Positions 1 to 40,016 of a stretch of DNA of 46,006 nt are shown here, piece by piece. The position numbers and the translations under genes were made by a program. The notes below the pieces were generated by a model that searched no databases, was not told where the DNA came from, and saw nothing but the letters and a program-made list of their open reading frames with translations. Each line of letters starts with the position of its first letter. Within the stretch, counting starts at the first letter, position 1. The stretch is from the NCBI GenBank assembly GCA_963693555.1, contig CAVOAA010000002.1:1-46006 (forward strand), in the 5' to 3' direction. The stretch comes from Dehalococcoidia bacterium (GTDB lineage: Bacteria > Chloroflexota > Dehalococcoidia > Lucifugimonadales > UBA3495).

Positions 1-264
1 GCTGGTGGGCATCTCACGGATGGTCGGTTGGCGGGGGAGGGTACTCTCAACAGCAGCAGGAGTCGTCATTGGCGTCGCGATCCTCGAGAATTCTTGGGGA
101 AAATGTCGTCCAGCCGGAACCAAAGCGCCCGGAGATCGGTTAATGAGCAATGGCCCCGGCCCCATAGGAGTAAACCAGTCCATTGGAGCCTAAAACGCCC
201 GACCATTTCAAGGAGCAACTGTCAATAATGGCTGCCGGAGCTGCTGGAAGGACCGCTGGCGTCT

Positions 265-399
265 CTAAGCCGCCACCTCGATAAACTCCACCGGGTAGTC
301 CTTCCGCCAGGCGTCTATACCGCCGGAAAGTGCGGAGGCTTCGAAGCCTTGGTCCCTTAATTGCTGCGCCACACGGACGCTAGTCGCATCGTCGGGTCA
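265..399 (-). other. In-frame continuation of the rhodanese domain beyond the TGA at 397-399. This is a candidate UGA-selenocysteine recoding site, or else a nonsense lesion.
   Basis: Hand translation in the same frame after the TGA gives PDDATSVRVAQQLRDQGFEASALSGGIDAWRKDYPVEFIEVAA, then a TAG at 265-267. That is the expected C-terminal half of a rhodanese fold (the GG-x-x-AW motif). Confidence 0.5.
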
Positions 400-1851
400 A
401 CTACAATAGAAGACCATCTCCTTCCCCGGCTCATATTCTTGCGCCCACTCGAAGGCACCGTCGGGCACCACCCGGATGGACTTTGGAATCCTGGTCCCGT
501 CATGGTTGTAGCTGGCCCGGGTCCGTACATCCACCACCAACGGCGGGTTGGGCCGCGTCAGACGGCCAACAAGCTCGTCGGGCGTTAGCATGGGGACTTG
601 TCCATCGTGACCGCCGAATAGCCCGGCTACCGTGCTCTCACGCTCTTCCAACAGGGTTTCTTCGGCGGCGACCCGGCCGTACCAGACCCCCACCGGCGTC
701 GCACTGCCGCCGTGAATGGCCACTGATGCCATGACCACCACACCCACGGTCGCCAGCAATAGCTCAGCGCCAGGGATACCCGCCTGCACGACAAGCAGGG
801 CCAGCAACAATGAGTTCAGCCCTCTTGGGCCGAACCAACAGATGAAGGCACGGGCCTGCCAGCTCAGCCGGGCCTTGGCCAATACCGTACCCAAAACCGC
901 CGGCCGTATGACGAACACCACCAGGGCGGCCAGGAACAACGTGGGCGTAACGTCAACCGTTCCCAACATGCCCGAGAGCACAGCTCCGAACAGGACAAAG
1001 GCCAGCAGCATGGCCATCTCAGAGGTGACTTCGCCATATTCCAGGAAACAATCGCAGAGAGACTGGTTGAGCATCACCACGGCCAGTCCGGCCGCGAACG
1101 CCCCCAGGAACCCATCGCCACCCGCTGCGGTTGCCGCAGAATAAGATGCCAACACCAGGCCCACGCCGTAGAGGGACTGATGCTCGCGCCGGATGGTCAT
1201 CTTCTTGTCCATCCAGTTCATCAACCAAGAGCCCACTCCGCCGACGGCAAAACCGATGGCCGGCCCCAAGAGGAGCAGCTTGACCAGGAAGATGACCCAG
1301 CCTCCGACGCTGCCACCCTGATCGGTGGCCACGGCAATCAGCACCAAGACCACCGGAAGTACCACCAGGTCGTTCATGCCCGCTTCGATCTTCAACACCT
1401 GCCTTACCGAACGGGGGATGCGCTCGTCACGCACGATATCCCGCAAGACGACCGGGTCGGTGGAAGCCAGGACAGCACCGCCGATGAAGGCCAGTATCCA
1501 GCCAAAGTTAAGGAACAACCCAAAGGGCAAAGCGCCGATGGCGATGATCAAGCCGGTACCCGGGCCAAGGATCAATGCCGGTACCAACCAGCGTTTGCCG
1601 AGTTCGGTGATCTGGATTTTTACGGCGTCCAGAAACAGAACCAAGGCCAAGGTCAGAGTGGCAACGACCTCAAGAAACGGGGAATGAGGTCCAACGTCAA
1701 GCTCGTCTATTCCCTGACTCCCCAGCAAAAATCCCAAGCCAAGGAAGATCAAAGGGAAAGAGAGCGGTGACCGCTCGACCAACCCGGATGCCAGGGCAGT
1801 AACCGTCAGAACGACGGCTATCACCCCGAATATGAAAATGAAATCAGGCAC
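397..1851 (-). CDS. Cation:proton (Na+/H+) antiporter, CPA1-type, fused to a C-terminal rhodanese domain. The ORF as tracked stops at a TGA inside the rhodanese active-site loop.
   Basis: About 400 aa of multi-pass hydrophobic segments typical of Na+/H+ exchangers are followed by a rhodanese-like tail (VVDVRTRASYNHDGTRIPKSIRV...EMVFYCS). The start is a GTG at 1849-1851. The ORF ends ...FYCS-TGA. Confidence 0.85.
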   Translation of the reverse strand: MPDFIFIFGVIAVVLTVTALASGLVERSPLSFPLIFLGLGFLLGSQGIDELDVGPHSPFLEVVATLTLALVLFLDAVKIQITELGKRWLVPALILGPGTGLIIAIGALPFGLFLNFGWILAFIGGAVLASTDPVVLRDIVRDERIPRSVRQVLKIEAGMNDLVVLPVVLVLIAVATDQGGSVGGWVIFLVKLLLLGPAIGFAVGGVGSWLMNWMDKKMTIRREHQSLYGVGLVLASYSAATAAGGDGFLGAFAAGLAVVMLNQSLCDCFLEYGEVTSEMAMLLAFVLFGAVLSGMLGTVDVTPTLFLAALVVFVIRPAVLGTVLAKARLSWQARAFICWFGPRGLNSLLLALLVVQAGIPGAELLLATVGVVVMASVAIHGGSATPVGVWYGRVAAEETLLEERESTVAGLFGGHDGQVPMLTPDELVGRLTRPNPPLVVDVRTRASYNHDGTRIPKSIRVVPDGAFEWAQEYEPGKEMVFYCS

Positions 1852-1885: not shown

Positions 1886-3523
1886 CTAGAACTTGGAGTA
1901 CTCGCCCTCGTCCTTGGTGATGAACTCCAATACTACTGCTTTGCCGGCCTCGGTCTCGGCGATGCCCCGTTTGATGGCGGGGATGATGTCGGCCGGGGCG
2001 GTGATCTTTTCAGTATAGGCGCCCATGGCCTGGGCAACCTCAGAGAATTCGCCCGATAGGGTTTTGACGTTGTATTTCTCCAGCGCCACGGGGAACCGGC
2101 TGTCGTCGTAGATGGACATATAAGCGTTGTTGATGACGATGGTCAGCGTGGGTATATCGCACCTGACTGCCGTCTCGATGTCCAGCCCCACGGTGCTGAA
2201 AGCCAAGTCACCCATTACATTTATGCACAGTTTTTCCGGTGCGGCCAGCTTGGCACCCATGGCCAACCCGAGACTGTAACCCAGCTGGGTGGACTTGCCC
2301 CAGCCGATGAAACTGCGGGGCGCACGGGCCTCCCAGAAGGGGCTCAGGTATTCTCTGGCGCTGCCCGACTCATGGGTGATTATGGTGTTGTCCAGATCAA
2401 CTGTGTGCATCAGGTCCCAGACCACCCGGTAGGGGTTCATGGGCACTTCTTCAGAGGTCAACTTGGGCATCCACTGGGCCAGCCAGGCTTCTTTCATCGA
2501 CTTGATGTCGTCTTGTAGCACCTGGTTCTTGGCCCTGGCGCTGCCCGCCTGGCTCTTCAGTTCGTCCAGCATTTGGCGCAGCACGAGTTTGGCGTCACCC
2601 AGCATGGCGAACTCGGTCTTGAACTCCCGGCCAATGGCGTCTTCGTCGTTGGTCAGATGGACCATGGTTTTGCCGGCGGGTATGGCCTGGGCGAAGTTGG
2701 TCTTGGTGAAGCTACAACCGACGCCAAAGACCAGGTCAGACTCTCTCAGGTATTTGTTGGCCTGGGCGGTCGTACTGGGGCCACCGGCGCCCAGGGACAG
2801 GGGGTGTGTCTCCGGGAAGGCGCTCTTGCCCGACAGGGTGGTCATCACCGGGGCCTGCAAGAACTCGGCCAGCTCGATCAGTTCGGGTGTGGCTTCCGCG
2901 TACAGGATGCCCTGACCGGCATGAATTATCGGCCGGTCGGCGGCCAGCAGGGCCTTGGCGGCGCGGCTCACGTCCGACGGATCAGCCTGTTGCAACACCA
3001 CCCGGGGTGGCTCGTAGTTGAACAGCTCTTCGGGCAGTTCGGCGGTGGCCACGTCCTGGGGGATCTCCAGCAGGACCGGGCCGGGGCGTCCGGTGCGCAA
3101 CTTGGTGAACGCCCGCCGCATCAGGTCGGGTATGCGCTCAACCATGTTCATCTCTTCCGACCATTTGGTGATGGTCTCGTAGCTGCGGGTGGGGTAGAAG
3201 TTCGGGTGGACCCCCCGTTTGTCCCGGGGCATGCCAGCGGGCAGCAGAAGGATGGGGACGGACTCCGAATAGGCTTGGGCAACGCCGCCGAAGCCGTTCT
3301 CCGCTCCGGGTCCGTTCTGCATCATGAACACGCCCATCTTCTTGCCGTTGGTCACCCTGGAATAACCGTCAACCATGTGGATGCCGGTGCTTTCTTGTCT
3401 AAAGATTATCGGGCGGATCCCGGCGATGGCCGCGGCTTCCAAAAGCGGCTGATAGGGCACGCAGCCGATGAACTCCACACCCTCCATGCGCAGGATATTG
3501 GCGATCGCTGTGACTCCGTCCAT
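1886..3523 (-). CDS. Thiamine-diphosphate-dependent enzyme, acetolactate-synthase-like family
   Basis: The 545-aa product has the N-terminal ThDP pyrimidine-binding region (GVEFIGCVPYQPLL...) and a C-terminal GDLAF...NN ThDP-binding motif. I moved the start to the ATG at 3523, which has a GAGGAG 7 nt upstream; the ORF-track TTG at 3538 lies inside that ribosome-binding site. Confidence 0.85.
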   Translation of the reverse strand: MDGVTAIANILRMEGVEFIGCVPYQPLLEAAAIAGIRPIIFRQESTGIHMVDGYSRVTNGKKMGVFMMQNGPGAENGFGGVAQAYSESVPILLLPAGMPRDKRGVHPNFYPTRSYETITKWSEEMNMVERIPDLMRRAFTKLRTGRPGPVLLEIPQDVATAELPEELFNYEPPRVVLQQADPSDVSRAAKALLAADRPIIHAGQGILYAEATPELIELAEFLQAPVMTTLSGKSAFPETHPLSLGAGGPSTTAQANKYLRESDLVFGVGCSFTKTNFAQAIPAGKTMVHLTNDEDAIGREFKTEFAMLGDAKLVLRQMLDELKSQAGSARAKNQVLQDDIKSMKEAWLAQWMPKLTSEEVPMNPYRVVWDLMHTVDLDNTIITHESGSAREYLSPFWEARAPRSFIGWGKSTQLGYSLGLAMGAKLAAPEKLCINVMGDLAFSTVGLDIETAVRCDIPTLTIVINNAYMSIYDDSRFPVALEKYNVKTLSGEFSEVAQAMGAYTEKITAPADIIPAIKRGIAETEAGKAVVLEFITKDEGEYSKF

Positions 3524-3632
3524 GTCTTTACTCCTCAAATAACCCGTGGGGGGCGAGCCAGCCGTGGCTCACGTGGGGCTGCGATTTCGGGCCAGTGTAG
3601 ATTGCACGCCTAAGGGTGTCAACCGGCCTAAA

Positions 3633-3870: not shown

Positions 3871-6800
3871 CTAAGGTTCGGTTACTGGTGGTACCAAACC
3901 GTGCTGATTGGCGTAGTTGGCGGCCTCGGCGCGGTTAGCCGCGCCGGTTTTGCTGAGGATGTTTCTCACGTGGTTGCCTACTGTATTGACGCTGATGACC
4001 AATTCTTCACCGATCTCCCGGTCGGTCATACCAGCGCAGATAACCAGCAGGACTTCGACTTCCCGCGCGGTGAGTCCATCGGGGTATGCAGGCGTCCTGA
4101 TGGGCTGTGCTTCAGCTAGTTCCTGAAGCCCCATAACCCGGTCTATCAGAGGACGCATACCCAAGTCGCTGGCCAGATCCAACGACTCTTTTAGCAGCGC
4201 AATCGCCTTGACTCGATCATCGCCCGAGTTGCGCTGAACCAGCAAGCCGGCGTAGTCGCAGCAAGTCCAGGCCAATTCGGGTCTACAACCCGCCTTGCGA
4301 CAGAAAACCAGCGCTTCTTCGAAGTGGGCTGCCGCTTGGTCAAGGTCACCGGCCGTCCGCGACAATAGGCCCAGCACTCTATCGACGACGAAACCAGGAC
4401 CATTACTGCTTTGAGGCGCCATAATGCCAGCAGTCGCCAGCAGCGAGCCGTACAATTCCCTGGCGGCCGTCTCGTCTTGCCGCTGCACAGCAATCAATGC
4501 CAGGCCTATCCGGGCCGCGTGCAAGTAAGCAGGGAGAGCGACCGGCAAGGAAAAGATTGCATTGGCCACCATCTCGACAAGATCAAAATGGACCATCCGG
4601 CCGGTTATGTAGGCGACCGCTGGGATGACCACGGCTGGGACCGTGTAAAACCCTTGTGTCACCAGCGCGATTGTGGCTGGGGGACTGGGCCACCCCCCCG
4701 GGGACGCTATCTAAGAGGCGCTGAAGATAAGCGTCGCTGGCATCGCTATCCCCTAATTGACACTCCAGCAGCGCCCCAGCGCCTAGAATCACAGGATCCC
4801 GTGGTGACGTTTTCAGGCACTGGTCAATATAGGTTCTAGCGGTCGGCCAGTCCCCCTTGGCGCTGTTTAAAACTACGTTGGCATCCATGGCACGGTCGTG
4901 CCAGATACGCGACCGGCTGCGTTCTGCGGCCGCCAACATCGCCTCAGCATGGACGGTTGCTTCTTCCAAGTTGCCCATCGCATAGAGAACGTGGTTCAGG
5001 TCGTAACGGGCGTGAGACTCTTCATTCGGCAGATCGACAAACTGCGCTAACGCGATGGCCTGCAGGTTACTTTCCAGGCTCTGCTCATTGTTGCTGTAAT
5101 GATAATCCACGCACCCTGCGGCGACCAAAGCCTTCATCTCCAGCGATTTGTTTTGTTGTTGGCGTGCGATGGAAAGAGCGTGATGAAAGGCTTCTTGAGA
5201 CCGGCCATAGTCGGTGCGAAATGGGAAGATCAGGCGGGCCTGGAGCCACCCAGCTTCGATGGTGTCCGGTGCAACCAACGTCAATGCTCTTTCGACGAAT
5301 TCAAGTCCAATGGTCACGATTGGAAGGTCGGAAAGAGCGGTTGCCAATGCTCGCTCTGAATCCCCGATACTCAAATAGTAATCGAAGGCTCGGGTAAGGC
5401 TGACAGCCACCTGCCTCGAATTTGACCGGTCATGGGTACCTAGTTGCGCGTGACCGAGTCCCGCTAATAGCGCCGCGGCCTCTTCATCTTCAGCCGGCTC
5501 CGAACCCGTTAGCGCTATGCCTTTGACCGTCAATCCCATTTGAAAGTGGACCAGCGCTTCATCGTAGGCCTGAACATTCACAGCTTTTTCGCCCGCCAGA
5601 ATGGAGTACTGCACCACCTTTTCTACGCCGGTAACTGTCTGCGCCTGGGCAAAATGGTAAACCAGTTCGGCGGCGTGGGCCTCGGCTTCCAACCCGTACC
5701 CAATTTCCAGAGTCTCGGCGATTCGGGCATGGAGACGCACACGCTGGGTCAAGGACAACTCCGAGGTTAGAGTCTCTTGAATCAATGCGTGAGCGAACTG
5801 GTAGTGGCCCACCGTATCGGATGTCTCTTCGATCGCTCGACCAGCTAGAGCCTCCTCCAACACACCCAACAACTGGCCCCCTGTGAAGTCTTCTATCAGC
5901 GGCCGCAATTGGTCCAGCGTGAACTCCCGGCCGATGACCGATGCCACAGTAAGGGTTTCGTTGCAGTGATTGGACAGACGATTCAGACGCCTTCCGATCA
6001 CTTCACGCACTCCCTCAGGAATGCGTATGGTCCATGAGTCTTTATCTTCTTTTTGTACCGAGCCGGGTACCGGGCCCGACATCGCGCCGGTGCTCAGCCC
6101 TCCCTCCTGCTCCAACATCCGCACTATCTCAGTGACGAACAGTGCATTGCCTTCTGTCTGAGAATGAAGAGCCTCGACCAATCCTGGATGGACTGTATTA
6201 CCTGAGGTAATCTCGATCAGGCGCGCCACATCTTCCCGGGCCAGGCCCTGCAATCGCAAGCGCTGGAATAATCGTTCTCTGGTCAATTCGCCAAGGGTCT
6301 CTACGAGAGGGTGTTGACGGCTAAGCTCAACATCCCGGTAGGTACCCAAGAGCATCAATCGTGCCCCATCCAACTCCCTTGTGACGAATCTAAGCAGTTG
6401 GAGTGATGGCAGATCGGCCCAGTGGAGGTCATCCAACACGATGACCATAAGCTGTTTCTGGGAGGCGTTTTTTAGAAATGTAGTTATCGAGTCGAACATC
6501 CGGAACTGGGCTTGTTCCGGGCTCTCCATCTGGGACGGAGGTCCGACTTCGGGCAACCTTTATTTCACGTCCGGCACCAGACCGGCAATGTCAGCGGCCC
6601 CAGCTCCGACCTCTGATCTCAGCTGATCTGGGTCAATTTCCCTCACGTGGGACCGGATAGCCTGGACCCAGGGCCAGTAAGGAGGCACTCCCTGCTCTTC
6701 GTAGCAACGGCCCCACAGCACCCGAGCGCCCTTGGAATCTGCGTGGTTGGCCAGTTCCTGCGCCAAGCGGGTCTTCCCGATGCCAGGCTCGCCGGCCAGC

Positions 6801-12515: not shown

Positions 12516-12836
12516 GTGCTTAGACATCTCGTGAAGCCCGCGAAGCCTCAAAATCCTGAAGAAACTTGTACGCTGAAAGTGCGGGTACAACCCAAAGCCT
12601 CGCGCAATCAGGTGGATGGTTTTGTAGAAGACACGCTGCGGCTCAGGGTTACTGCCCCGCCGACAGAGGGCCAGGCCAACGATGGCGTGATCACGCTGTT
12701 GGCCAAGGCATTGGGCGTCAGCAAGTCGCGGCTGGAGATCGTCCGGGGGCACAGCTCAAGAGACAAACTTATCTCGGTGCAGACCTTGTCCGAACAAGAA
12801 GTTCGGCGGCGTATCGAGACCGGGGCAAAAGGCTGA
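12516..12836 (+). CDS. DUF167 (YggU-like) family protein
   Basis: LKVRVQPKASRNQVDGF...LRLRVTAPPTEGQANDGVITLLAKALGVSKSRLEIVRGHSSRDKLI matches the YggU pattern I recall. The start (GTG at 12516 or 12531) is uncertain. Confidence 0.8.
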   Translation: MLRHLVKPAKPQNPEETCTLKVRVQPKASRNQVDGFVEDTLRLRVTAPPTEGQANDGVITLLAKALGVSKSRLEIVRGHSSRDKLISVQTLSEQEVRRRIETGAKG

Positions 12837-12860
12837 TTAAAGGGGCCTAGGAGGGCGCGA

Positions 12861-13310
12861 TTGCAGGCAATGAACTTTGGTTGGGTCTTGGAAAACGAAC
12901 TGGCCGGGTCAGAAGGTCCGGCCAGTTTTGACGACTTAGCTTTTCTCTACCATCATGGAGTCCGGGCCGTTATCCGGATGGAAGAACGGACCATCCCCGC
13001 CGACAGCGGGAAAGACATCGACCTGTTGGACATGTACGAGCCGGTCGAGGATTTCACGGCGCCCGACATGGAACAGATCCAGCGGATGATTGATTTCATC
13101 GACCAGCAGACCGCCGAGAAACGGCCGGTGGTGGTCAGTTGCTATGCGGGCATCGGGCGGACCGGCACTGTCCTAGCCTGTTACCTGGTGCACCGTGGCA
13201 TGGAACCCGCCGCTGCCATCAGCCGGGTACGGGAACTACGTCCACCCTCGATCCAGACAGCAAGCCAAGAAGCGGCTATCCATGCCTACGCGGAGTGGGC
13301 CAGCCGTTAA
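12861..13310 (+). CDS. Dual-specificity / protein-tyrosine phosphatase family protein
   Basis: A CX5R P-loop is present (VVVSCYAGIGRTGTVLACYLV). The TTG start at 12861 follows an AGGAGGG by 5 nt. Confidence 0.75.
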   Translation: MQAMNFGWVLENELAGSEGPASFDDLAFLYHHGVRAVIRMEERTIPADSGKDIDLLDMYEPVEDFTAPDMEQIQRMIDFIDQQTAEKRPVVVSCYAGIGRTGTVLACYLVHRGMEPAAAISRVRELRPPSIQTASQEAAIHAYAEWASR

Positions 13311-13516
13311 GCGGCAACGGCCCTGGCGCGATCTTCGGTCAATGCCTGAATAGCGATCTGATCGAACGTCGCCCCGTGTAGCACGGACCGGTGGCCGCCC
13401 GACTCGTTGACCTCGGTCAATTTCCCGCATTGCAGGCATTTTAGGAAAGCGCCGAATGAGTCCTTTTCCAGGGTCAGGTCTCCCTCGCATTTGGTGCAGG
13501 CTTTTAGATAAAACAT
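13307..13516 (-). CDS. Small zinc-ribbon protein (69 aa), uncharacterised
   Basis: The product is MFYLKACTKCEGDLTLEKDSFGAFLKCLQCGKL..., with two CxxC pairs. A GGAAGGA lies 8 nt upstream of the ATG at 13516. The longer ORF-track version (to 13921) is an antisense shadow of the JAMM gene. Confidence 0.55.
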   Translation of the reverse strand: MFYLKACTKCEGDLTLEKDSFGAFLKCLQCGKLTEVNESGGHRSVLHGATFDQIAIQALTEDRARAVAA

Positions 13517-13697
13517 CTGATGATTCCTTCCGGGTTGCGGGCTGTGCGAATCTTGCTGGGCCACTTTCCCGTATCTATTTATGCAAGCTTTGATGCCGCT
13601 ATTCACTCCAGGGTTTCCTCTGGTATATTCACACAAGTTTGCGGCTTCATACCCTCCTGACGTAGATCGCTCAGATTTTGTTCCCGGAGTTGACCGA

Positions 13698-14111
13698 TTG
13701 GTCCAGATCAAACAGGAATTCATCGATGAAATGGTGGCCCACGCCAAGGCCGACCTACCCAACGAGTGCTGCGGCATCCTGGCGGGGCCGGACGGCCAGG
13801 TGATGAAGGCGTTCCAAATGGCCAACGTGGAAGCCAGCCCCTTCCGGTTCGCGATGGACCCCGGGGAACTGGGCAGGGTCGATTCCGAGGCCGGAGACAA
13901 TGACTGGGAGCTGCTGGCCATCTACCACTCCCACACCGGCAGCGAGGCCTATCCTTCCGACACCGATGTCCGCATCGCCGGCGGCACTGCCGGGCTCTTG
14001 CCCGACGTCCGCTACGTGCTGGTCTCTCTGATGGACATGGACAACCCGTCGGTACGCATATTTCAGATATCTGATGGAACAGTCACTGAGGAGCCCCTCG
14101 AGGTCGCCTGA
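13698..14111 (+). CDS. JAMM/MPN+ (Mov34) metalloprotease family protein
   Basis: The product contains EFIDEMVAHAKADLPNECCGILAG...YHSHTGSEAYPSDTD, which covers the E-x-CG and H-x-H-x7-S-x2-D JAMM motifs. The TTG start at 13698 has a GGAG 8 nt upstream and gives a typical 137-aa size. Confidence 0.8.
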   Translation: MVQIKQEFIDEMVAHAKADLPNECCGILAGPDGQVMKAFQMANVEASPFRFAMDPGELGRVDSEAGDNDWELLAIYHSHTGSEAYPSDTDVRIAGGTAGLLPDVRYVLVSLMDMDNPSVRIFQISDGTVTEEPLEVA

Positions 14112-14151
14112 AATACACACGCCGGTACAGTCCCTGAGAAGCCGCTCAAGA

Positions 14152-16392
14152 TTGAACCACGCACGATTCATTCGTTGGTTGCCCGCAGCTATCTTCTTAC
14201 TGGCCGTCGCATGCAGCGGCGCCACGGCAACGCCCTCGTCTTCAGTCACGCCTAGTGGCGTTGGTCAAGACGGGACCTCTACTCCATTGGCAACACCAAC
14301 CGGACACACTCCAGCCCGGCCGCCCACTCGGCATCCCGATACCACAAACTGGGTGGAAGCACGCCTTGATGCGGTCGTGGACCTCTATCAACCCACCCGG
14401 GCCGGAGTGGCCCTACTGCGCAGCCTGGACTTGCGGCAGATGGAGGGCGAGCCGGGCTTCTTCGGTAGCTATGGGTTCGCCGAATGGGCCGGCGTCGGCG
14501 AGGCCTCACCCATCGGTGTGATACACGAACTGGGCCACTCCTATTGGGGCGGCTTCCCTGTCGCAGGCCGGCCCGACCTCAGCTGGGTCAGGACTTCCAA
14601 TGACACGCGGGACACAGGCGACACGCGCTCGACGGCCATGCAGAGCTACCACAAAGACATCCTCACCTTCATGGCTCAACCGCCCGACGACTACGAGTTG
14701 CTCCGGCAGCGGATGCGCAACCTCCCCGACATCTCCAGCGACAACACCGAGCCGGTGCTCCACAACATGGAAGCCGACATGGTCTACAACACCGGCGGCA
14801 GCCTCAACATGGTGCCGCCCATCCTGCAGAAGTACTGGGTGAATTTTCTGTCGCCCGGACGGTTCGGCAACTGGTATAACGCGGCCGGTTGGTTTCAAAC
14901 ACTTTCTGAAGACGACCGAAAATTAGCCGGCAAGTGGCTGGGATTCGAGCACTTGGACCTGCGGGATTACCCAACTCTGGAAACGGTCCCGCCATCTCCC
15001 GAGGTCATGCTCACCGCCCAGACCGTTATCGAAACCGAAGAGAGGCAGCGCCTCTGGGACCTGGTCTACCAGTTCGATCTGCTGATCGGCGACCCGCAGA
15101 ATGAAGAGGACTTCGAGTTCTGGCGCCGGTATCTTCGGGACAAGATCACCCTCCACCAAACCCACCCCGCCTACCTGTTATTGCTCTCTCACTCGCGCGC
15201 CGGACAGTTTGACTCGGCGATGCGTTTTATCGAATCTCTGACCAATAACTCACCTGCTGAGCAGGCGGCCCGGCTGGCAGACCAACTGGTGGCGGAGCCC
15301 TTCCTGGTAAACCTGCTGCCAGCGGTCGATAACCGAATACTGGTGGAGCTTTTTTCCAGTGGAGCCGAACTGCCAGAAGGACAGACGCTACAGGCCACTG
15401 CCAGCTTCGTGGAGCGGCTCAAGGTATTTGGGTCCAAGGTCGATTCTGTCCTACAAGCCGGGCGGTCCGACCCCTCGGCCGGTGCGGCGGAGTTGGAGAC
15501 GTTCCTGGGTGAAACAGGGCTCGAACATGAAGACGACATCAAGCTTTTCTTCAACCTGTTCAAAGACCGAGACCGGGAGGTTGCCAGCGCCGTGACACTG
15601 GCGCTGTCCGGCAAAACGGTGCGCGGATTGATGGTGCCTGTTCCGTTCCAATTGCGTTCGCTGCTAAAACCGTCAGCGCTGCTATCCAAGCTCGGCGTCA
15701 CGTACGCTTACAGCGAATCTCCGCCCCTCAGCGAAGCGATAGCCCTGTTGGTCGAAGAGCCATCGGGGAACTTCCAGGTTGACGAGCCATATCTGGACGC
15801 CATGTTTGAAGTCGTGGCAGAGCGCACGGGAGACTCGCCCCATGATGCGGCGCAACTGCTGCTGAATACACCCTTCCCATTGGAGGGTTTCATCATGGCC
15901 CAACCGGCTGCGGCGGCGGCGATATTCAATACCCGGATGCCTGTCGCGGTGGAGTTGGTGCAAACCAGCGACTCGCTGCTGGCGCCGCCGTGGCGGATCA
16001 TGTACCGGCTGATCAAAGCCGACCATGAGTTGGCGGCAAGCGTCCTAGCCGAATTCCACCGGCGCGGCGAGACCCGCTTGGTTGCCGAGTCCCTGGCCCA
16101 CATGGCCTACGACAAAGACCGGCAGGAAAGATCATCCCTGCTACCGATCTCGTTGGAGGCCGACGGCCAGTTCTTGGGAGAACTGTTCCAATCCGAAGGG
16201 GCGGACTGGCTGGAAGACAGACTCGGTGAGTCGGTATCGCTATTCCGCACGAGGGTGGAAGACGGCGAAGTGAGCCCAGAATTCCTGGAGCGTTACCGCG
16301 AAACCCTGGAATTCGCCGCCGCCTTTCTCAGCGACCCAGAAACCCGAACCGGCCTGACCGGGGTTATTCGTCGGGCGTTTGGGCTGTCATGA
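14152..16392 (+). CDS. Large uncharacterised lipobox-bearing protein with a single HExxH motif (putative secreted zinc metallopeptidase)
   Basis: A TTG at 14152 gives MNHARFIRWLPAAIFLLAVAC-SG, a signal peptide with a lipobox-like cysteine. This is followed by a Thr/Pro/Ser linker and then VIHELGHSYWGG (HELGH at 14524-14538). I recognise no other family signature. Confidence 0.6.
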   Translation: MNHARFIRWLPAAIFLLAVACSGATATPSSSVTPSGVGQDGTSTPLATPTGHTPARPPTRHPDTTNWVEARLDAVVDLYQPTRAGVALLRSLDLRQMEGEPGFFGSYGFAEWAGVGEASPIGVIHELGHSYWGGFPVAGRPDLSWVRTSNDTRDTGDTRSTAMQSYHKDILTFMAQPPDDYELLRQRMRNLPDISSDNTEPVLHNMEADMVYNTGGSLNMVPPILQKYWVNFLSPGRFGNWYNAAGWFQTLSEDDRKLAGKWLGFEHLDLRDYPTLETVPPSPEVMLTAQTVIETEERQRLWDLVYQFDLLIGDPQNEEDFEFWRRYLRDKITLHQTHPAYLLLLSHSRAGQFDSAMRFIESLTNNSPAEQAARLADQLVAEPFLVNLLPAVDNRILVELFSSGAELPEGQTLQATASFVERLKVFGSKVDSVLQAGRSDPSAGAAELETFLGETGLEHEDDIKLFFNLFKDRDREVASAVTLALSGKTVRGLMVPVPFQLRSLLKPSALLSKLGVTYAYSESPPLSEAIALLVEEPSGNFQVDEPYLDAMFEVVAERTGDSPHDAAQLLLNTPFPLEGFIMAQPAAAAAIFNTRMPVAVELVQTSDSLLAPPWRIMYRLIKADHELAASVLAEFHRRGETRLVAESLAHMAYDKDRQERSSLLPISLEADGQFLGELFQSEGADWLEDRLGESVSLFRTRVEDGEVSPEFLERYRETLEFAAAFLSDPETRTGLTGVIRRAFGLS

Positions 16393-17490: not shown

Positions 17491-18591
17491 CTAGCTTCCG
17501 GTTTCTATGGCAGCAACGATCAGGTCACCCATCTCTACCGTCGAAACACGCTCGGTGCCCTCGGTCGCCGTGTCGGCGGTCCGGGCGCCCTGTTCCAATA
17601 CCTTGTCCACCGCCCTCTCGATGGCGGCGCCTTCCTCGGTCAGGCCAAGGGAATAGCGGACCATCAAACCCACGCTCAGTATGGAGCCTGTGGGGTTGGC
17701 GATGCCTTTACCCGCTATATCCGGCGCGGTACCGTGGATCGGCTCGTACAGCCCACCGGAACGTTGTCCTGCCACCGGCACTCCAGCCAGGCTGGCCGAC
17801 GGCAGCAATCCCATGGAAGCCGCCAACACGGAGGCTTCATCACTGAGGATGTCGCCGAATGTATTCTCCGCAACGATCACGTCGTAGCTGGCCGGCGCTT
17901 GGATCAACTGCATGGCACAGGCGTCCACCAGCACGTGTTCCAATTCTACGTCGGGGTATTCTAAGCCCAGTCTTGTGGCCACCGTGCGCCACAAACGTGA
18001 ACATTCCAGCACATTGGCCTTGTCAACGGAGGTCAACTTCTTGCGGCGTCCCCGCGCCAGTTCAAAGCCCACCCGCACCACCCGCTCTATCTCGCCCTCG
18101 GTGTAGCGCATGGTGTCCTCGGCTATGATGCCGTTGGGTGTCTCGCGCCTTCCTCTCGGCTCGGCATAATAGAGACCGCCCGTCAGCTCACGCACGACCA
18201 CCAGATCAACGCCCTCTATGATATGGGGTTTCAGAACACTGGACTCGGACAACCACGGGTAGACCTTGACTGGTCTGATGTTGGCGAATACGCCCATGTG
18301 GGCACGCATGTCCAACAAGCCCATCTCGGGCCTTACCTTGGCGTCGGGAGAGTCCCATTTGGGGCCACCGACAGCGCCGAAGAGCACAGCGTCGTTGGAG
18401 TCCAGAAGACCTCTGGTCTCGTCGGTCAGAGGAATCCCGTGCTTGTCGATGGATATCCCGCCGATATCGCCGTAACTAAGATTAAATTCATGGCCGAACG
18501 CCCGGCCCACCGCCTCGAGGACGCGGACGCCCTGGTCAGTAACTTCCGGGCCGATCCCGTCGCCACCCAATACGGCGATGTTGAACTCCAC
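17491..18591 (-). CDS. leuB: 3-isopropylmalate dehydrogenase
   Basis: The product contains [13 protein letters not shown]...[12 protein letters not shown]...ELTGGLYY...[14 protein letters not shown]...[21 protein letters not shown]. The GTG start has an AGGAGG 6 nt upstream. Confidence 0.95.
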
Positions 18592-18857
18592 TTGGTCCCT
18601 CCTGGATGTCTAAAACCGGATGCCAATATAGATTGAACCGGATATTGCCTGAAACGAAAATCCTCCGGCCCAAATCCCGCCACAGTATACCCATAAACAT
18701 GAGGACCATCAAACAGGACCTAAACCGAATCAACTGGCAGACCGGCTCCAGCCTGGCAATGAGGCCGATTTTGCTCTATCATCCCAGGGATTCCAACGGG
18801 AATCGGCCGGACGTCCGGCAATCGTTGATCAGGGTTTTTAGGCACGTGGTCCCAGGC

Positions 18858-20285
18858 ATGGATTTCAAACGATTTCTAAAAAACCTCCAAGACATCGTCG
18901 GTGAGCAGAACGTGGTCCACCACTCCGACGACCTGCTGGTCTTCGAGTACGACGGCTCGGTCGACCGCAGGGTGCCAGAAGCTGTGGTATTCCCCAAGAG
19001 CACCCAAGAGGTGAGCCGGGTTATCGCCCTGGCCCGCCGGAACAGGGTCCCAGTTGTCGGCCGTGGCACCGGTACCGGCCTCAGCGGCGGCGCCATCGCC
19101 CCTCCTGGCGGCATCCAAGTCGCCTTCACCCGCATGAACCGCATCCTGGAAGTGGACACCGACAACCGCATGGCCCTAGTCGAACCGGGCGTCATCAACC
19201 TGGACCTCGACACCCGCGTCCGCAAAGAGGGTCTCCGCTACGCCCCCGACCCCTCCAGCCAGAAAGCCTGCAGCCTGGGCGGTAACGTCGCCGAGAACTC
19301 GGGCGGGCCTCACTGCCTGGCCTACGGCACCACCACCAACCACGTATTGGGCATGGAAGTAGTGCTGGAAGACGGGTCGATCGTGAACCTTGGCAGCATG
19401 GCCCGAGAGACCACCGGCTACGACCTAAGGGGCGTGTTCACCGGGTCCGAGGGCACCTTCGGAATCGCCACCAAGATCGCTGTCCGGCTGCTGCCGGTGC
19501 CGGAAGCCGTGCGCACCTTCCTTGGCATCTTCCCGGACGTTGGTACTGCTTGCACCGCGGTATCGGCGGTGATCGAACACGGCATCGTGCCCGCCGCCCT
19601 GGAGATGATCGACGCCCTGACGATACAGGCGGTACAGAACGTCAGCGACGCCGGTTACCCGGACGACGCTGGGGCTGTTCTGCTCATCGAACTCGAGGGG
19701 CTGAGCGACGAAGTGGACGAGATCGGAAAAGAGGTTGAGGCCGCGCTCTGGGACACCGGCGCGACCGAGGTACGCACCGCCCAAGCAGCCGAGGAACGCC
19801 AGCAACTCTGGGTCGGCAGGAACGGCGCATTGGGCGCATTGGGCAGCATCGCCCCCAACTATTTCTTGGTCGACGGCGTGGTGCCCCGGACTCAGCTGGC
19901 ACAGGTCCTGGGACAGGTGGCCGAGGTCAGCCGGAAGTACGACATACCAATCGCCAATGTGTTTCACGCCGGCGACGGCAACCTCCATCCATGCCTGCTC
20001 TTCGATGAACGCAAGCCCGGCGCGTTGGAAAAGATCGTGGAGGCCGGGACCGCGGTATTGCAGATATGCGTTGATGCCGGAGGAACCCTGACCGGCGAAC
20101 ACGGCGTGGGCCTGGAAAAGAAAGAACAGATGCCCCTGGTGTTCTCGGAAGATGACATGGCCGCCATGATATTGGTCCGCGACGCTTTTGCGCCGGCCAA
20201 TAGCCTGAACCCCGGCAAGATCTTCCCCGACGGTACCAAGCCGCTCCCCCATGCCCATCCAGCCGCACCGGGAATGACCGTCTAG
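18858..20285 (+). CDS. glcD: Glycolate oxidase subunit GlcD (FAD-linked oxidase)
   Basis: The product begins MDFKRFLKNLQDIVGEQNVV... and contains VVGRGTGTGLSGGA...DPSSQKACSLGGNVAENSGGPHCLAYG. The ORF-track 5' extension (18606-18857) has no protein-like content. glcE and glcF follow. Confidence 0.9.
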   Translation: MDFKRFLKNLQDIVGEQNVVHHSDDLLVFEYDGSVDRRVPEAVVFPKSTQEVSRVIALARRNRVPVVGRGTGTGLSGGAIAPPGGIQVAFTRMNRILEVDTDNRMALVEPGVINLDLDTRVRKEGLRYAPDPSSQKACSLGGNVAENSGGPHCLAYGTTTNHVLGMEVVLEDGSIVNLGSMARETTGYDLRGVFTGSEGTFGIATKIAVRLLPVPEAVRTFLGIFPDVGTACTAVSAVIEHGIVPAALEMIDALTIQAVQNVSDAGYPDDAGAVLLIELEGLSDEVDEIGKEVEAALWDTGATEVRTAQAAEERQQLWVGRNGALGALGSIAPNYFLVDGVVPRTQLAQVLGQVAEVSRKYDIPIANVFHAGDGNLHPCLLFDERKPGALEKIVEAGTAVLQICVDAGGTLTGEHGVGLEKKEQMPLVFSEDDMAAMILVRDAFAPANSLNPGKIFPDGTKPLPHAHPAAPGMTV

Positions 20286-20355
20286 CGAACCGTACTCGGC
20301 CTACGGCCTCTGGCAACATCCGATTCAATAACATCCGATTCAATCAGGAGTACAT

Positions 20356-21726
20356 TTGGAGTCTTCTTTAGTCGACCGGCTTTCGCGTCTCCTAGGGGGT
20401 AGCGCGGTCTCACCTGGTGACGGGCACGAGATCGACGGCCTAACCCCGCAGGCAGTGGTGCGCCCGGTGGACCGGCTCCAGCTTTCCGAGGTCATCAGTT
20501 GGGCTTCTTCAGAACAGGTAAGCCTCCTGCCCAGAGGCGGCGGCACCCGCTCGGGCTTGGGCAACGTCCCAAGAACCGCCGACGTGGTGCTCGACCTGGG
20601 AGCGTTCAACCGCGTGTTGGACTACCAGCCTGCCGACATGACGGCAACGGTCGAGGCCGGCGTGACCCTGTCCTCACTGCAAGGACAACTGTCGTCCGGT
20701 GGAGAATTTGTTCCCCTCGAGTCAGCGATGGCCGACCGGTCAACCGTGGGCGGAATCCTGTCAGTCGGCGCTGGCGGGCCGCTGTCCCATACCTACGGTC
20801 TGCCCAGGGAATGGCTCATCGGCATCGGCGTGATGACCACCAAGGGCGTGTCCACCAAGGCCGGCGGCAAGGTGGTCAAGAATGTGACCGGCTATGACCT
20901 GAACAAGCTCTACACCGGCTCCCTGGGCACGCTGGGAGTGATCGTAGAGGCCTCGTTCAAGCTCTTGCCCCGTGACCCTCAGGCCGGGACGCTGATGGTG
21001 TCATTCCCATCCCTGGCCGCGTCCATCGCGGCAGGCCGGAAGTTGCTGCATTCGCCAGCTGCGCCGTTGGGGTTTCATGCAATCACCTCGGGCGTCTCCC
21101 GCCGTTTGCAAGACTCGGTCCAAGCCGCGTCTCAAGACCTGGGACTCAACGACGAGGAAACCGCACTGTCGTTCTCGTTCTTTGCCGGCCGCTCCCAAGC
21201 CACCCGGCGAAGATTGGATGAGGCGGCGGCCCTCCTGCTGGCGGAAGGCGCGATCGCAGTGCAGCGCATCGAAGGCGATTCAGCCAAGGGCATGCTGCGT
21301 TGGATCACCGATGTACCCGCCGAGATCAGCCCTGAATCCACGCTGGTCATGAAAGTGTCGGTCCAAGCCAAATCCGTGGCCCGTACCTCCGCTGAATGCG
21401 CCGACATTCTTCTGTTTGGAGAAGGCCCCGACCAGATGGCCGACCCCGGTTTCGGCACGGTCCGGCTGCACTGGCCCGAATCGCAAGACGGCCCAAATCG
21501 GAGCGCCGGGGTTGATCAGTCGATCCTGGACGCGGTACGCAAGATACGCCAGATCGCCCACCAATACGGCGGCTCAGCAGTGGTTGAGCATTGTCCTCTG
21601 TCGGCCAAGCGTCAGATGGACGTCTGGGGAGACCTGCCCGACAGCCTGGAGGTCATGCAGGCCATCAAGGAACGATTCGACCCCGGCGAGATCCTTAACC
21701 CCGGCCGGTTCTTGGGAGGTATCTAG
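20356..21726 (+). CDS. glcE: Glycolate oxidase FAD-binding subunit GlcE
   Basis: This is an FAD-binding PCMH-type domain (LLPRGGGTRSGLG...GGKVVKNVTGYDLNKLYTGSLGTLGVI) sitting between glcD and glcF. The TTG start has an AGGAG 5 nt upstream. Confidence 0.8.
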   Translation: MESSLVDRLSRLLGGSAVSPGDGHEIDGLTPQAVVRPVDRLQLSEVISWASSEQVSLLPRGGGTRSGLGNVPRTADVVLDLGAFNRVLDYQPADMTATVEAGVTLSSLQGQLSSGGEFVPLESAMADRSTVGGILSVGAGGPLSHTYGLPREWLIGIGVMTTKGVSTKAGGKVVKNVTGYDLNKLYTGSLGTLGVIVEASFKLLPRDPQAGTLMVSFPSLAASIAAGRKLLHSPAAPLGFHAITSGVSRRLQDSVQAASQDLGLNDEETALSFSFFAGRSQATRRRLDEAAALLLAEGAIAVQRIEGDSAKGMLRWITDVPAEISPESTLVMKVSVQAKSVARTSAECADILLFGEGPDQMADPGFGTVRLHWPESQDGPNRSAGVDQSILDAVRKIRQIAHQYGGSAVVEHCPLSAKRQMDVWGDLPDSLEVMQAIKERFDPGEILNPGRFLGGI

Positions 21727-35686: not shown

Positions 35687-36163
35687 TCAGTCGTCATCCC
35701 CCAAGTTGGTCTGCATCCGGTAGGAACTCAGGGCAACGATGCCGGTCACTGTACCGACTCCGGCCCCTAAAGCCGCGCCTTGGGCCGCGAACTCGGGAAT
35801 GATGGCGGTGATGATAGCCCCGGCAGCGCCCCCGCCGCCGATGGCGATCACCAACCCGGCCAATAGCTCAACGACCGGATTCAAGTTCAGCCACCGAGCC
35901 AGCGTCAACGCACCGATGGGCGCTCCTGCCCCGGCAACGCCTCCGATGAACGATGGAATGATGGCGACTACCGACGCGATCATAGGCGAGCCGGTGTCAA
36001 AACTGACGCCCGCAGAGTCCCCATAGATATCTATGGCGTCCGTCAGCGCGGCCCCGATCTGCACCGAGTGGGTTAACCCGTACAGAATGCCGATGCTCAG
36101 GCCGATCAATAAGGCGGATATGAAGCCGGTCCGGACGGCGTGATCAAGGTGTTGCGGATTCAA
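35687..36163 (-). CDS. Glycine/alanine-rich integral membrane protein, uncharacterised
   Basis: The 158-aa product has 4 hydrophobic segments with GxxxG-rich stretches (GGVAGAGAPIGAL, AIGGGGAAGAII). The TTG start has a GGGGA upstream. It appears translationally coupled to the FG-GAP gene. Confidence 0.5.
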   Translation of the reverse strand: MNPQHLDHAVRTGFISALLIGLSIGILYGLTHSVQIGAALTDAIDIYGDSAGVSFDTGSPMIASVVAIIPSFIGGVAGAGAPIGALTLARWLNLNPVVELLAGLVIAIGGGGAAGAIITAIIPEFAAQGAALGAGVGTVTGIVALSSYRMQTNLGDDD

Positions 36164-39446: not shown

Positions 39447-40016
39447 CTAATTTCGGGCGGCTCCAGACTCCATGGACCTCATCCCTCGGGATATACATTT
39501 CAAGAGATCAAGGGCCTCACGGAGCTGGCTGACCTTTTTGATGACTCCGTTATCTTTGGAACCAAACGCCCGGTTGTCCAGACTGATCGAATCGGGTCCT
39601 GCCTCCAGGGTGAAAAAGTCGGAAGCGTCGGCGATAGACTCTTGTATCTCAGCGCTGGCCAGAAGACCGCTCAGCTTTTTGACGTTGTTGAATTCGACCT
39701 TGGCGCGTGACGCCAGGCCCGGAAACTCCGAGTTCAGGTAGGGATCACGGTCGAACTGCGGCACCTCACTGTCACCCCAGCCAAATATCTTAAACTGGAA
39801 CTCTTCGCTTGAATGCCCAAGAGTCATCACGGTCCGGCTATTGCGTCCGTCGGTCTTGTTGCTCACTTCGATCCGGTAACCCATGAACGGGATATGGACC
39901 TCATCACCCCCGGACTCGCCTTCCGTCACCAAAAATCCACCAACCTCGTTACTGAACCGGCACCAGTTCTCCTGGCATTTGCGGTCTGAATGAAATGCGT
40001 TTCCTATAAATCCCAT
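39447..40016 (-). CDS. Hypothetical protein (189 aa) with no family recognised
   Basis: The ORF has a strong ribosome-binding site (GGAGGGG, 5 nt before the ATG). Its GC is about 45-47% in two 60-nt lines I counted, against about 68% in a typical line elsewhere. An N-terminal CQENWC pair is present. Confidence 0.6.
   Translation of the reverse strand: MGFIGNAFHSDRKCQENWCRFSNEVGGFLVTEGESGGDEVHIPFMGYRIEVSNKTDGRNSRTVMTLGHSSEEFQFKIFGWGDSEVPQFDRDPYLNSEFPGLASRAKVEFNNVKKLSGLLASAEIQESIADASDFFTLEAGPDSISLDNRAFGSKDNGVIKKVSQLREALDLLKCISRGMRSMESGAARN

Follow-up and report, generated by a model that had tools for sequence, protein, structure and literature searches.

The stretch of DNA analysed in this study (46,006 nucleotides, hereafter called the window) comes from a Dehalococcoidia bacterium of the phylum Chloroflexota (assembly GCA_963693555.1, contig CAVOAA010000002.1, positions 1 to 46,006 of the forward strand), and its subject is a candidate selenoprotein gene at positions 265..1851 of the minus strand. 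As conventionally read, this gene is an open reading frame (ORF, 397..1851) of 484 codons for a Na+/H+ antiporter, which starts with GTG (1849..1851; homologues start MPDF...), has the C-terminus ...EMVFYCS and ends with TGA at 399..397. Past this TGA, the same frame stays open for 43 codons, PDDATSVRVAQQLRDQGFEASALSGGIDAWRKDYPVEFIEVAA, up to TAG at 267..265, which is the predicted true stop of the gene. The full read-through coding sequence (265..1851) would comprise 527 residues, with selenocysteine (Sec) as codon 485, plus the TAG, and consists of the antiporter followed by a C-terminal rhodanese domain. The original prediction, which was made from the sequence alone, had placed the in-frame TGA inside the active-site loop of this rhodanese domain, at the end of the 484-aa antiporter ORF, and its coordinates (397-399) were found to be exact.

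Domain analysis was carried out with Pfam on the read-through protein, with Cys placed at the TGA. The membrane part is a CPA1-type Na_H_Exchanger domain (PF00999; residues 18-389, window 685..1800, minus strand), which scored 127.3 bits against a threshold of 26.2. The rhodanese domain (PF00581; residues 423-517, window 301..585, minus strand) scored 40.7 bits against a cut-off of 22.2, covered profile positions 1-101 of 102 and spanned codon 485, which bears out the earlier proposal that read-through supplies the missing half of the rhodanese fold.

The position of the TGA within this domain is that of the catalytic residue. When the protein was aligned by HMMER with solved single-domain rhodaneses, the TGA column (codon 485; 397..399, minus strand) fell on the catalytic Cys of both 6mxv (YFYCGGGFRS) and 3iwh (YYIVCAGGVRS), at the start of the active-site loop. 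The motif can be written as Cys483-x-Sec485, followed by an unusually acidic loop of six residues (P-[DN]-[ED]-A-T) and then Ser. The window itself reads FYCS-U before the loop (U-P-D-D-A-T-S), and the family consensus is [AVTF]-Y-C-[TSA]-U. Cys483 (TGT at 403..405, minus strand), two residues N-terminal of the predicted Sec, is Cys in 68 of the 69 TGA-form sequences. Homologues with Cys at the site read YCTC[RH]NEATS in three database proteins (P0078, P0084 and P0098) and YCSCPDDATS or YCTCPDEASS in two genomic loci (L066 and L078). Thus, the Cys-form motif given in the original prediction is real, and the TGA stands in a Cys column, at the second Cys of these sequences. Among NCBIfam models, the best match of the domain was NF041203 (rhodanese_LYCAU, 'rhodanese-related (seleno)protein'; E about 1e-22, profile positions 18-124 of 126), with 79.3 bits for the full protein and 82.5 bits for the domain alone, both below the curated equivalog cut-off of 115.

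A search of approximately 5.8 billion predicted proteins returned homologues with identities from 100% down to 59%. Nearly all of them had been called as proteins of 484-489 aa that cover 92% of the query and end at the same residue, and the few full-length ones, of the Cys form, had 528-539 aa. For comparison at the nucleotide level, we used 80 related loci from species-representative genomes (out of approximately 545 genomic relatives), of which 79 could be scored at the aligned codon. All 80 loci belong to Chloroflexota, including SAR202, other Dehalococcoidia, Thermomicrobiales and the isolate Nitrolancea hollandica Lb, and their proteins are 56-95% identical to that of the window. The aligned codon was TGA in 68 of the 79 loci, TGC or TGT in 5 (L011, L025, L042, L066 and L078) and TGG in 6. 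N. hollandica Lb, a cultured nitrite oxidiser (locus L055), has the TGA form together with the hairpin described below.

In every locus, the frame 3' of the aligned codon was open and encoded the second half of the rhodanese fold (xxEATSARxAQQLRxxGxxAxALxGGFxAWRxxYPVEP). Across the 69 TGA-form sequences, codon positions 1 and 2 after the TGA had low entropy and position 3 had high entropy, which is the signature of coding sequence; in the Thr, Leu and Gly-Gly codons, positions 1 and 2 were invariant and position 3 was nearly random (1.6-2.0 bits). No conserved start codon could be found after the TGA in the aligned TGA-form loci, and it follows that the 43-codon part could be produced only via read-through. 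Within the sampled family, TGA is the ancestral state, as a neighbour-joining tree placed the three groups of Cys forms and a single Trp clade inside the TGA forms. The TGA context of the window was found again, unchanged, in four contigs assembled independently from different samples. Seven other genes of the window are terminated by TGA, indicating that the genetic code is standard.

Two minor groups of variants were observed at the same codon. The Trp (TGG) forms are monophyletic (L052, L060, L063, L064, L065 and L071); they keep the rhodanese domain, with the active-site loop remodelled to WHRESSS and the hairpin absent, and TGG is one base away from UGA. To judge from these sequences, the tail of this clade looks like a catalytically dead domain. 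In addition, Ser (TCA) occupies the site in two close relatives of the window protein in which the hairpin is still there (P0005, L081:2953-2955; P0003, L299:1645-1647). The downstream part of P0003 looks degraded (for example, AWRK to AGRK), and the TCA variants could be natural losses of function or sequencing errors.

A conserved RNA element lies immediately downstream of the TGA and within the coding sequence. RNAalifold, applied to the 69 sequences, returned a helix at 366..380 (minus strand) as the sole consensus structure: a 5-bp stem (GCGUC/GGCGC) that closes a 5-nt loop (CGUGU), which we regard as the core of the Sec insertion sequence (SECIS). In the family, the hairpin reads GCG(C/U)C-CGUGN-GGCGC at +20 to +34 from the U of the UGA (window 380..366); its stem begins 16 nt 3' of the UGA, and the UGA-to-loop distance is 21 nt. 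Standard pairs accounted for 98.8% of the 345 pair-cells. A G.U wobble was present in the stem of 15 sequences, and three cells in two pairs showed double changes that keep the pair (C-G to U-A twice and G-C to A-U once). When the stem partner was shifted by one to three columns, pairing fell to 20-60%. Synonymous sites gave the strongest indication: third-position entropy at codons +6 to +10 was 0.26, 0.11, 0.11, 0.00 and 0.32 bits, compared with 1.5-2.0 bits at equally conserved codons nearby, and the Arg codon of the loop was CGT in 67 of 68 sequences, compared with 140 of 1677 Arg codons (8%) elsewhere in those genes. CGT was kept in one of the five Cys forms. The base directly 3' of the UGA was C in 52 TGA-form sequences, G in 12, A in 5 and T in none; in E. 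coli, no stop context is leakier than UGA-C.

The original prediction had found no convincing SECIS by eye and had named two candidate stems. A hairpin does exist within 40 nt of the UGA, although the real one had been missed; it lies between those two candidates. The proximal GACG/CGUC stem was paired in 70.7% of cells, no better than column shuffles, and the distal GUGUGG/CCGCAC helix, which falls where the sequence shows no conservation, is not the conserved element. Outer helices around the core (12-14/36-38 and 10-14/39-43) were also rejected, since in the family as a whole only 50-61% of their cells were paired. In the genome of the window alone, a possible lower part of the SECIS could be drawn (354..396, minus strand; pairs 394-396/354-356 and 386-388/362-364), which is not conserved in the family. 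Thus, a 5-bp SECIS that could be detected neither by eye nor by folding energy was revealed through frozen synonymous sites.

The hairpin falls within the geometry of the bacterial SECIS (bSECIS) model summarised in PMC13188914, which specifies a loop of 3-9 nt, a stem of 4-16 bp, a UGA-to-loop distance of 16-37 nt, a G as loop base 1 or 2 (with G or U usually next to it on the 3' side) and a threshold of -7.5 kcal/mol for the minimum free energy (MFE). Like the elements of that model, it is located inside the coding sequence, and positions 2 and 3 of its loop are G and U. It differs from them in standing at the minimal end of the model, in lacking a conserved lower stem, and in a core of -4.9 kcal/mol, which is weaker than the threshold unless the non-conserved flanks are counted.

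Some evidence for the Sec machinery could be obtained from other genomes of the family. The motif GDKLLGGPQAG, shared by the SelA proteins of E. coli and Aquifex, was scanned over the genome collection, and the Dehalococcoidia SelA loci found in this way were reused as queries. SelA co-occurred with the TGA-form gene in at least three metagenome-assembled genomes (MAGs): CAYFYG01 (SelA at L256, TGA-form gene at L023), CAZYOV01 (L289 and L045) and DAOUMF01 (L294, partial at a contig end, and L044). The two complete SelA proteins scored 558-563 bits with TIGR00474 (cut-off 267.9), and the partial one scored 258.6 bits over the part present. A tRNA-Sec adjoins SelA in other Dehalococcoidia MAGs (L220, L235 and L291). 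Neither sel genes nor a tRNA-Sec could be found in the 46-kb window (where tRNA-Lys is the sole tRNA), in the next 10 kb or in the ±3 kb flanks of the 80 loci. In SAR202-like MAGs (L297:10001-11368 with flanks, L289, L290 and L287), selA is a solitary sel gene, flanked on one side by an aminotransferase/phosphoglycerate-dehydrogenase pair and on the other by an AMMECR1/LigB gene, with no selB, selD or tRNA-Sec within 10 kb. This arrangement differs from that of Dehalogenimonas, for which a full sel system has been reported (PMC4918011) and in which the sel genes are clustered.

On the basis of these results, we propose, with a probability of roughly 0.88, that 265..1851 (minus strand) is a single gene for a 527-residue selenoprotein, in which a CPA1 (NhaP-like) antiporter is joined to a rhodanese domain with a catalytic Sec and the UGA is recoded via a SECIS within the coding sequence. 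The candidate put forward in the original prediction is supported by the conserved TGA, the Sec/Cys pair at the catalytic residue, the hairpin and the SelA genes of the three carrier MAGs. The same prediction had offered a lesion, such as a fresh nonsense mutation, or an assembly error as a real alternative. In full, this explanation supposes a recent nonsense mutation in a gene under decay, or a TGC/TGT Cys codon that was misread in sequencing or assembly. TGA is one base away from either Cys codon, a broken LuxR-type regulator gene is indeed present in the window, and rare codon variants such as the TCA of P0005 and P0003 do occur at the site. Against it, TGA is shared by 68 of 79 species-level genomes whose proteins are 56-89% identical to that of the window, the downstream frame is under protein-level constraint, TGA is ancestral in the family tree and the sequence is identical in four independent assemblies. 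The related loci differ at many positions and thus are not copies of one contaminating sequence. Conservation of the TGA and of the frame, agreement of the assemblies and ordinary use of TGA as a stop elsewhere in the window together exclude a nonsense lesion, an assembly error or a reassigned code, and we regard the probability of this explanation as negligible.

That the UGA is a genuine stop, with a functional product of 484 residues and the following 43 codons conserved for another reason (a small peptide or an RNA element), is how gene callers and NCBI annotate the gene. Termination should indeed compete with recoding, hence the truncated product probably exists as well. However, the codons beyond the TGA are conserved in the manner of protein sequence and supply exactly what the rhodanese fold lacks, no conserved start codon lies 3' of the TGA, the Cys and Trp forms run through the site as a single protein, and there is no reason why half of a rhodanese domain (residues 423-484) should be conserved by itself. 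This explanation is therefore very improbable. A somewhat stronger competitor, though still an improbable one, is read-through of the UGA without Sec, either as Cys or as Trp or another residue via near-cognate suppression aided by the hairpin. Decoding of UGA as Cys by a tRNA-Sec-like tRNA(Cys) occurs in 'ReC'-type systems. What the conserved UGA, frame and hairpin demonstrate is recoding, not the identity of the inserted residue; five loci have Cys and one clade has UGG (Trp) at the site, and the scans built on SelA revealed no SelB, SelD or tRNA-Sec in the carrier genomes. What speaks for Sec instead is the presence of SelA in three carrier MAGs, since SelA is not known to have a role other than making Sec-tRNA(Sec). 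In addition, the site is that of a catalytic Cys, a classic Sec/Cys position, and the curated family nearest to the domain, which likewise has the C-x-U motif, is already known for selenoproteins. The Trp clade, with its remodelled loop and lost hairpin, also looks as expected if the chemistry at the site changes.

It should be noted that several observations weigh against the selenoprotein interpretation, in which Sec insertion at codon 485 itself is inferred from sequence. The MFE of the 15-nt core (-4.9 kcal/mol) and of a 45-nt element (-11.5 kcal/mol) gave z of about 0 versus dinucleotide shuffles; the fold being no more stable than shuffled sequence, folding energy was dropped as evidence. 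Covariation is thin (only the three double changes), and most of the support for the hairpin comes from conservation. Rfam scans of 230..460, at gathering-threshold and permissive settings, found neither a SECIS nor any other family, only chance-level microRNA and sRNA matches. Furthermore, in three Cys forms (L011, L025 and L042) a 5-bp stem persists where the SECIS would be, and the S-A-R-A-A-Q coding sequence may thus account for some of the pairing. The loops of these three are altered (AGAGC, CGCGC), and in L011 the stem is altered on both sides; the stems may be fossil SECIS elements or partly a by-product of coding S-A-R-A-A-Q. With regard to the machinery, SelA was the only component seen in the three carrier MAGs by the SelA-based scans, these MAGs represent neither the genome of the window nor its closest relatives (L001-L005), and MAG binning can mix genomes, which weakens the co-occurrence.

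If the gene is a selenoprotein gene as proposed, SelB and Sec-tRNA(Sec) would recode the UGA at 397..399 as Sec during translation, directed by the minimal SECIS hairpin within the coding sequence (366..380). When recoding fails, the ribosome would release the 484-residue antiporter with half a rhodanese fold. In the full-length protein, the selenol and Cys483 could form a selenenylsulfide or take up sulfane sulfur.

Rhodanese selenoproteins of the C-x-U type are themselves known. Such a family appears in PMC13188914 and PMC9312934, both of which credit the bSECISearch study, and the reviews list five rhodanese selenoprotein forms, all predicted families, one of them being C-x-U (NF041203; TKB26178.1). 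Sec-bearing COG0607 sulfurtransferases have also been reported from marine metagenomes. The window family shares with NF041203 a single rhodanese fold, a catalytic Sec and, two residues before it, a Cys ([LFA]-Y-C-x-U). However, the known family is free-standing with approximately 126 aa, whereas the domain here corresponds to residues 417-522 of a 527-residue antiporter fusion, scores below the curated cut-off (and thus is not an equivalog member), has an acidic active-site loop (P-[DN]-[ED]-A-T-S) and forms the tail of a 13-helix-type membrane antiporter. Compared with solved CPA1 NhaP-type antiporters (4cz8, 4cz9 and 4cza, 'Na+/H+ antiporter, putative'), the protein has the same Na_H_Exchanger domain and the ATDP, ND and GPRG motifs, but these structures are only distant kin and have neither a rhodanese tail nor Sec. 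Other transporter selenoproteins are likewise membrane ion transporters with Sec in a soluble accessory domain; they differ in transporter class, in having a metal-binding Sec domain instead of a rhodanese, and in motif.

In the literature searched, nothing relevant was found on an antiporter-rhodanese selenoprotein or an NhaP-rhodanese fusion; a 2026 review does not mention an antiporter, and SAR202 genome papers do not mention selenoproteins. No NCBIfam model covering the fusion was matched. Thus, the antiporter fusion appears to be undescribed, and its novelty lies in architecture and distribution. Within that literature, it is the sole rhodanese selenoprotein tethered to an ion transporter, which raises the question of whether redox state, sulfur or selenium controls ion exchange. 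The Sec-rhodanese antiporter is widespread in SAR202 and other Chloroflexota, and it could serve as a conserved marker of selenium use in the globally abundant dark-ocean lineage SAR202. In dozens of genomes, public annotation stops the protein at residue 484 and describes it as a plain cation:proton antiporter, so that comparative and metabolic work on SAR202 and other Chloroflexota misses a predicted catalytic selenol and half a domain. As the cultured N. hollandica Lb carries the TGA form and the hairpin, the prediction is directly testable.

With regard to the antiporter half, T131-D132, N160-D161 and GPRG 341-344 (including R343) are invariant in the family, and the ATDP, ND and GPRG motifs align with those of the closest solved structure, the Na+/H+ antiporter 4cz8/4cza (E 2e-6). 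Considering that the CPA1 ion-binding motifs are both invariant and aligned with 4cz8, the transporter half is probably an active cation/proton exchanger. All NCBIfam antiporter equivalogs scored far below cut-off, including the NhaP2-type K+/H+ models (NF003716 and relatives; 136 versus 355 bits).

The CPA1 topology places the C-terminal tail in the cytoplasm, and from this we infer that the rhodanese domain is cytoplasmic. The Sec and the Cys two residues upstream suggest that the site may accept sulfane sulfur or selenium, or form a selenenylsulfide. The Trp clade retains the domain without Sec, via a single UGA to UGG change, which suggests a domain role that does not need catalysis and favours a regulatory or sensing tail on the antiporter. 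Our best guess is that the domain serves the transporter as a regulatory module that senses redox state or sulfur, and is not a free sulfurtransferase. A more specific and rather doubtful idea is that the Sec tail works as a selenium/redox switch: with selenium, the full-length protein would be made, and its selenol and Cys483 would sense sulfane sulfur or oxidants and gate exchange; when selenium is lacking, a tail-less antiporter with a different activity would result. If this were true, selenium status would directly set ion and pH homeostasis in the abundant dark-ocean SAR202.

We also surveyed the surroundings of the gene. No second selenoprotein gene with the same hairpin could be identified in the 625 kb of the window and loci, and other in-frame TGAs in the window were rejected as ordinary out-of-frame or intergenic events. 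At 12834-13307 (plus strand), a 157-codon open frame starting ...MNFGWVLENELAGSEGP comes after an in-frame TGA; this looks like a separate small gene starting from ATG rather than a second selenoprotein.

Directly upstream of the antiporter lies a gene for a thiamine pyrophosphate (TPP)-dependent enzyme (1886-3538, minus strand), which is syntenic only in the eight closest relatives (L001-L005, L015, L037 and L072). Its linkage was rejected as a functional clue because the synteny is limited to these eight, and it is probably not functionally linked to the antiporter. Further along, a LuxR/LAL-type regulator (AAA_16 ... GerE) is broken (window 3871-6556, extending upstream to about 6900, minus strand; equivalent to L083:4942-7981). 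In L083, it consists of three overlapping or adjacent ORFs of 116, 648 and 253 aa, and an intact paralogue of 990 aa lies 10 kb away (18326-21298). This is presumably the decayed gene that had been noted in the window before; it does exist, but has no bearing on the TGA locus.

For the remaining ORFs tested, no Pfam match at E <= 0.001 was obtained for a 772-aa ORF (14074-16392, plus strand) or a 204-aa ORF (13307-13921, minus strand), and none was obtained for the short ORFs at 35687-36163 and 39447-40016 (both minus strand). The other tested ORFs of the window represent ordinary SAR202-type metabolism, including luciferase-like monooxygenases, acyl-CoA dehydrogenases, an enoyl-CoA hydratase and flavin adenine dinucleotide (FAD)-linked oxidases with a CCG-domain protein.

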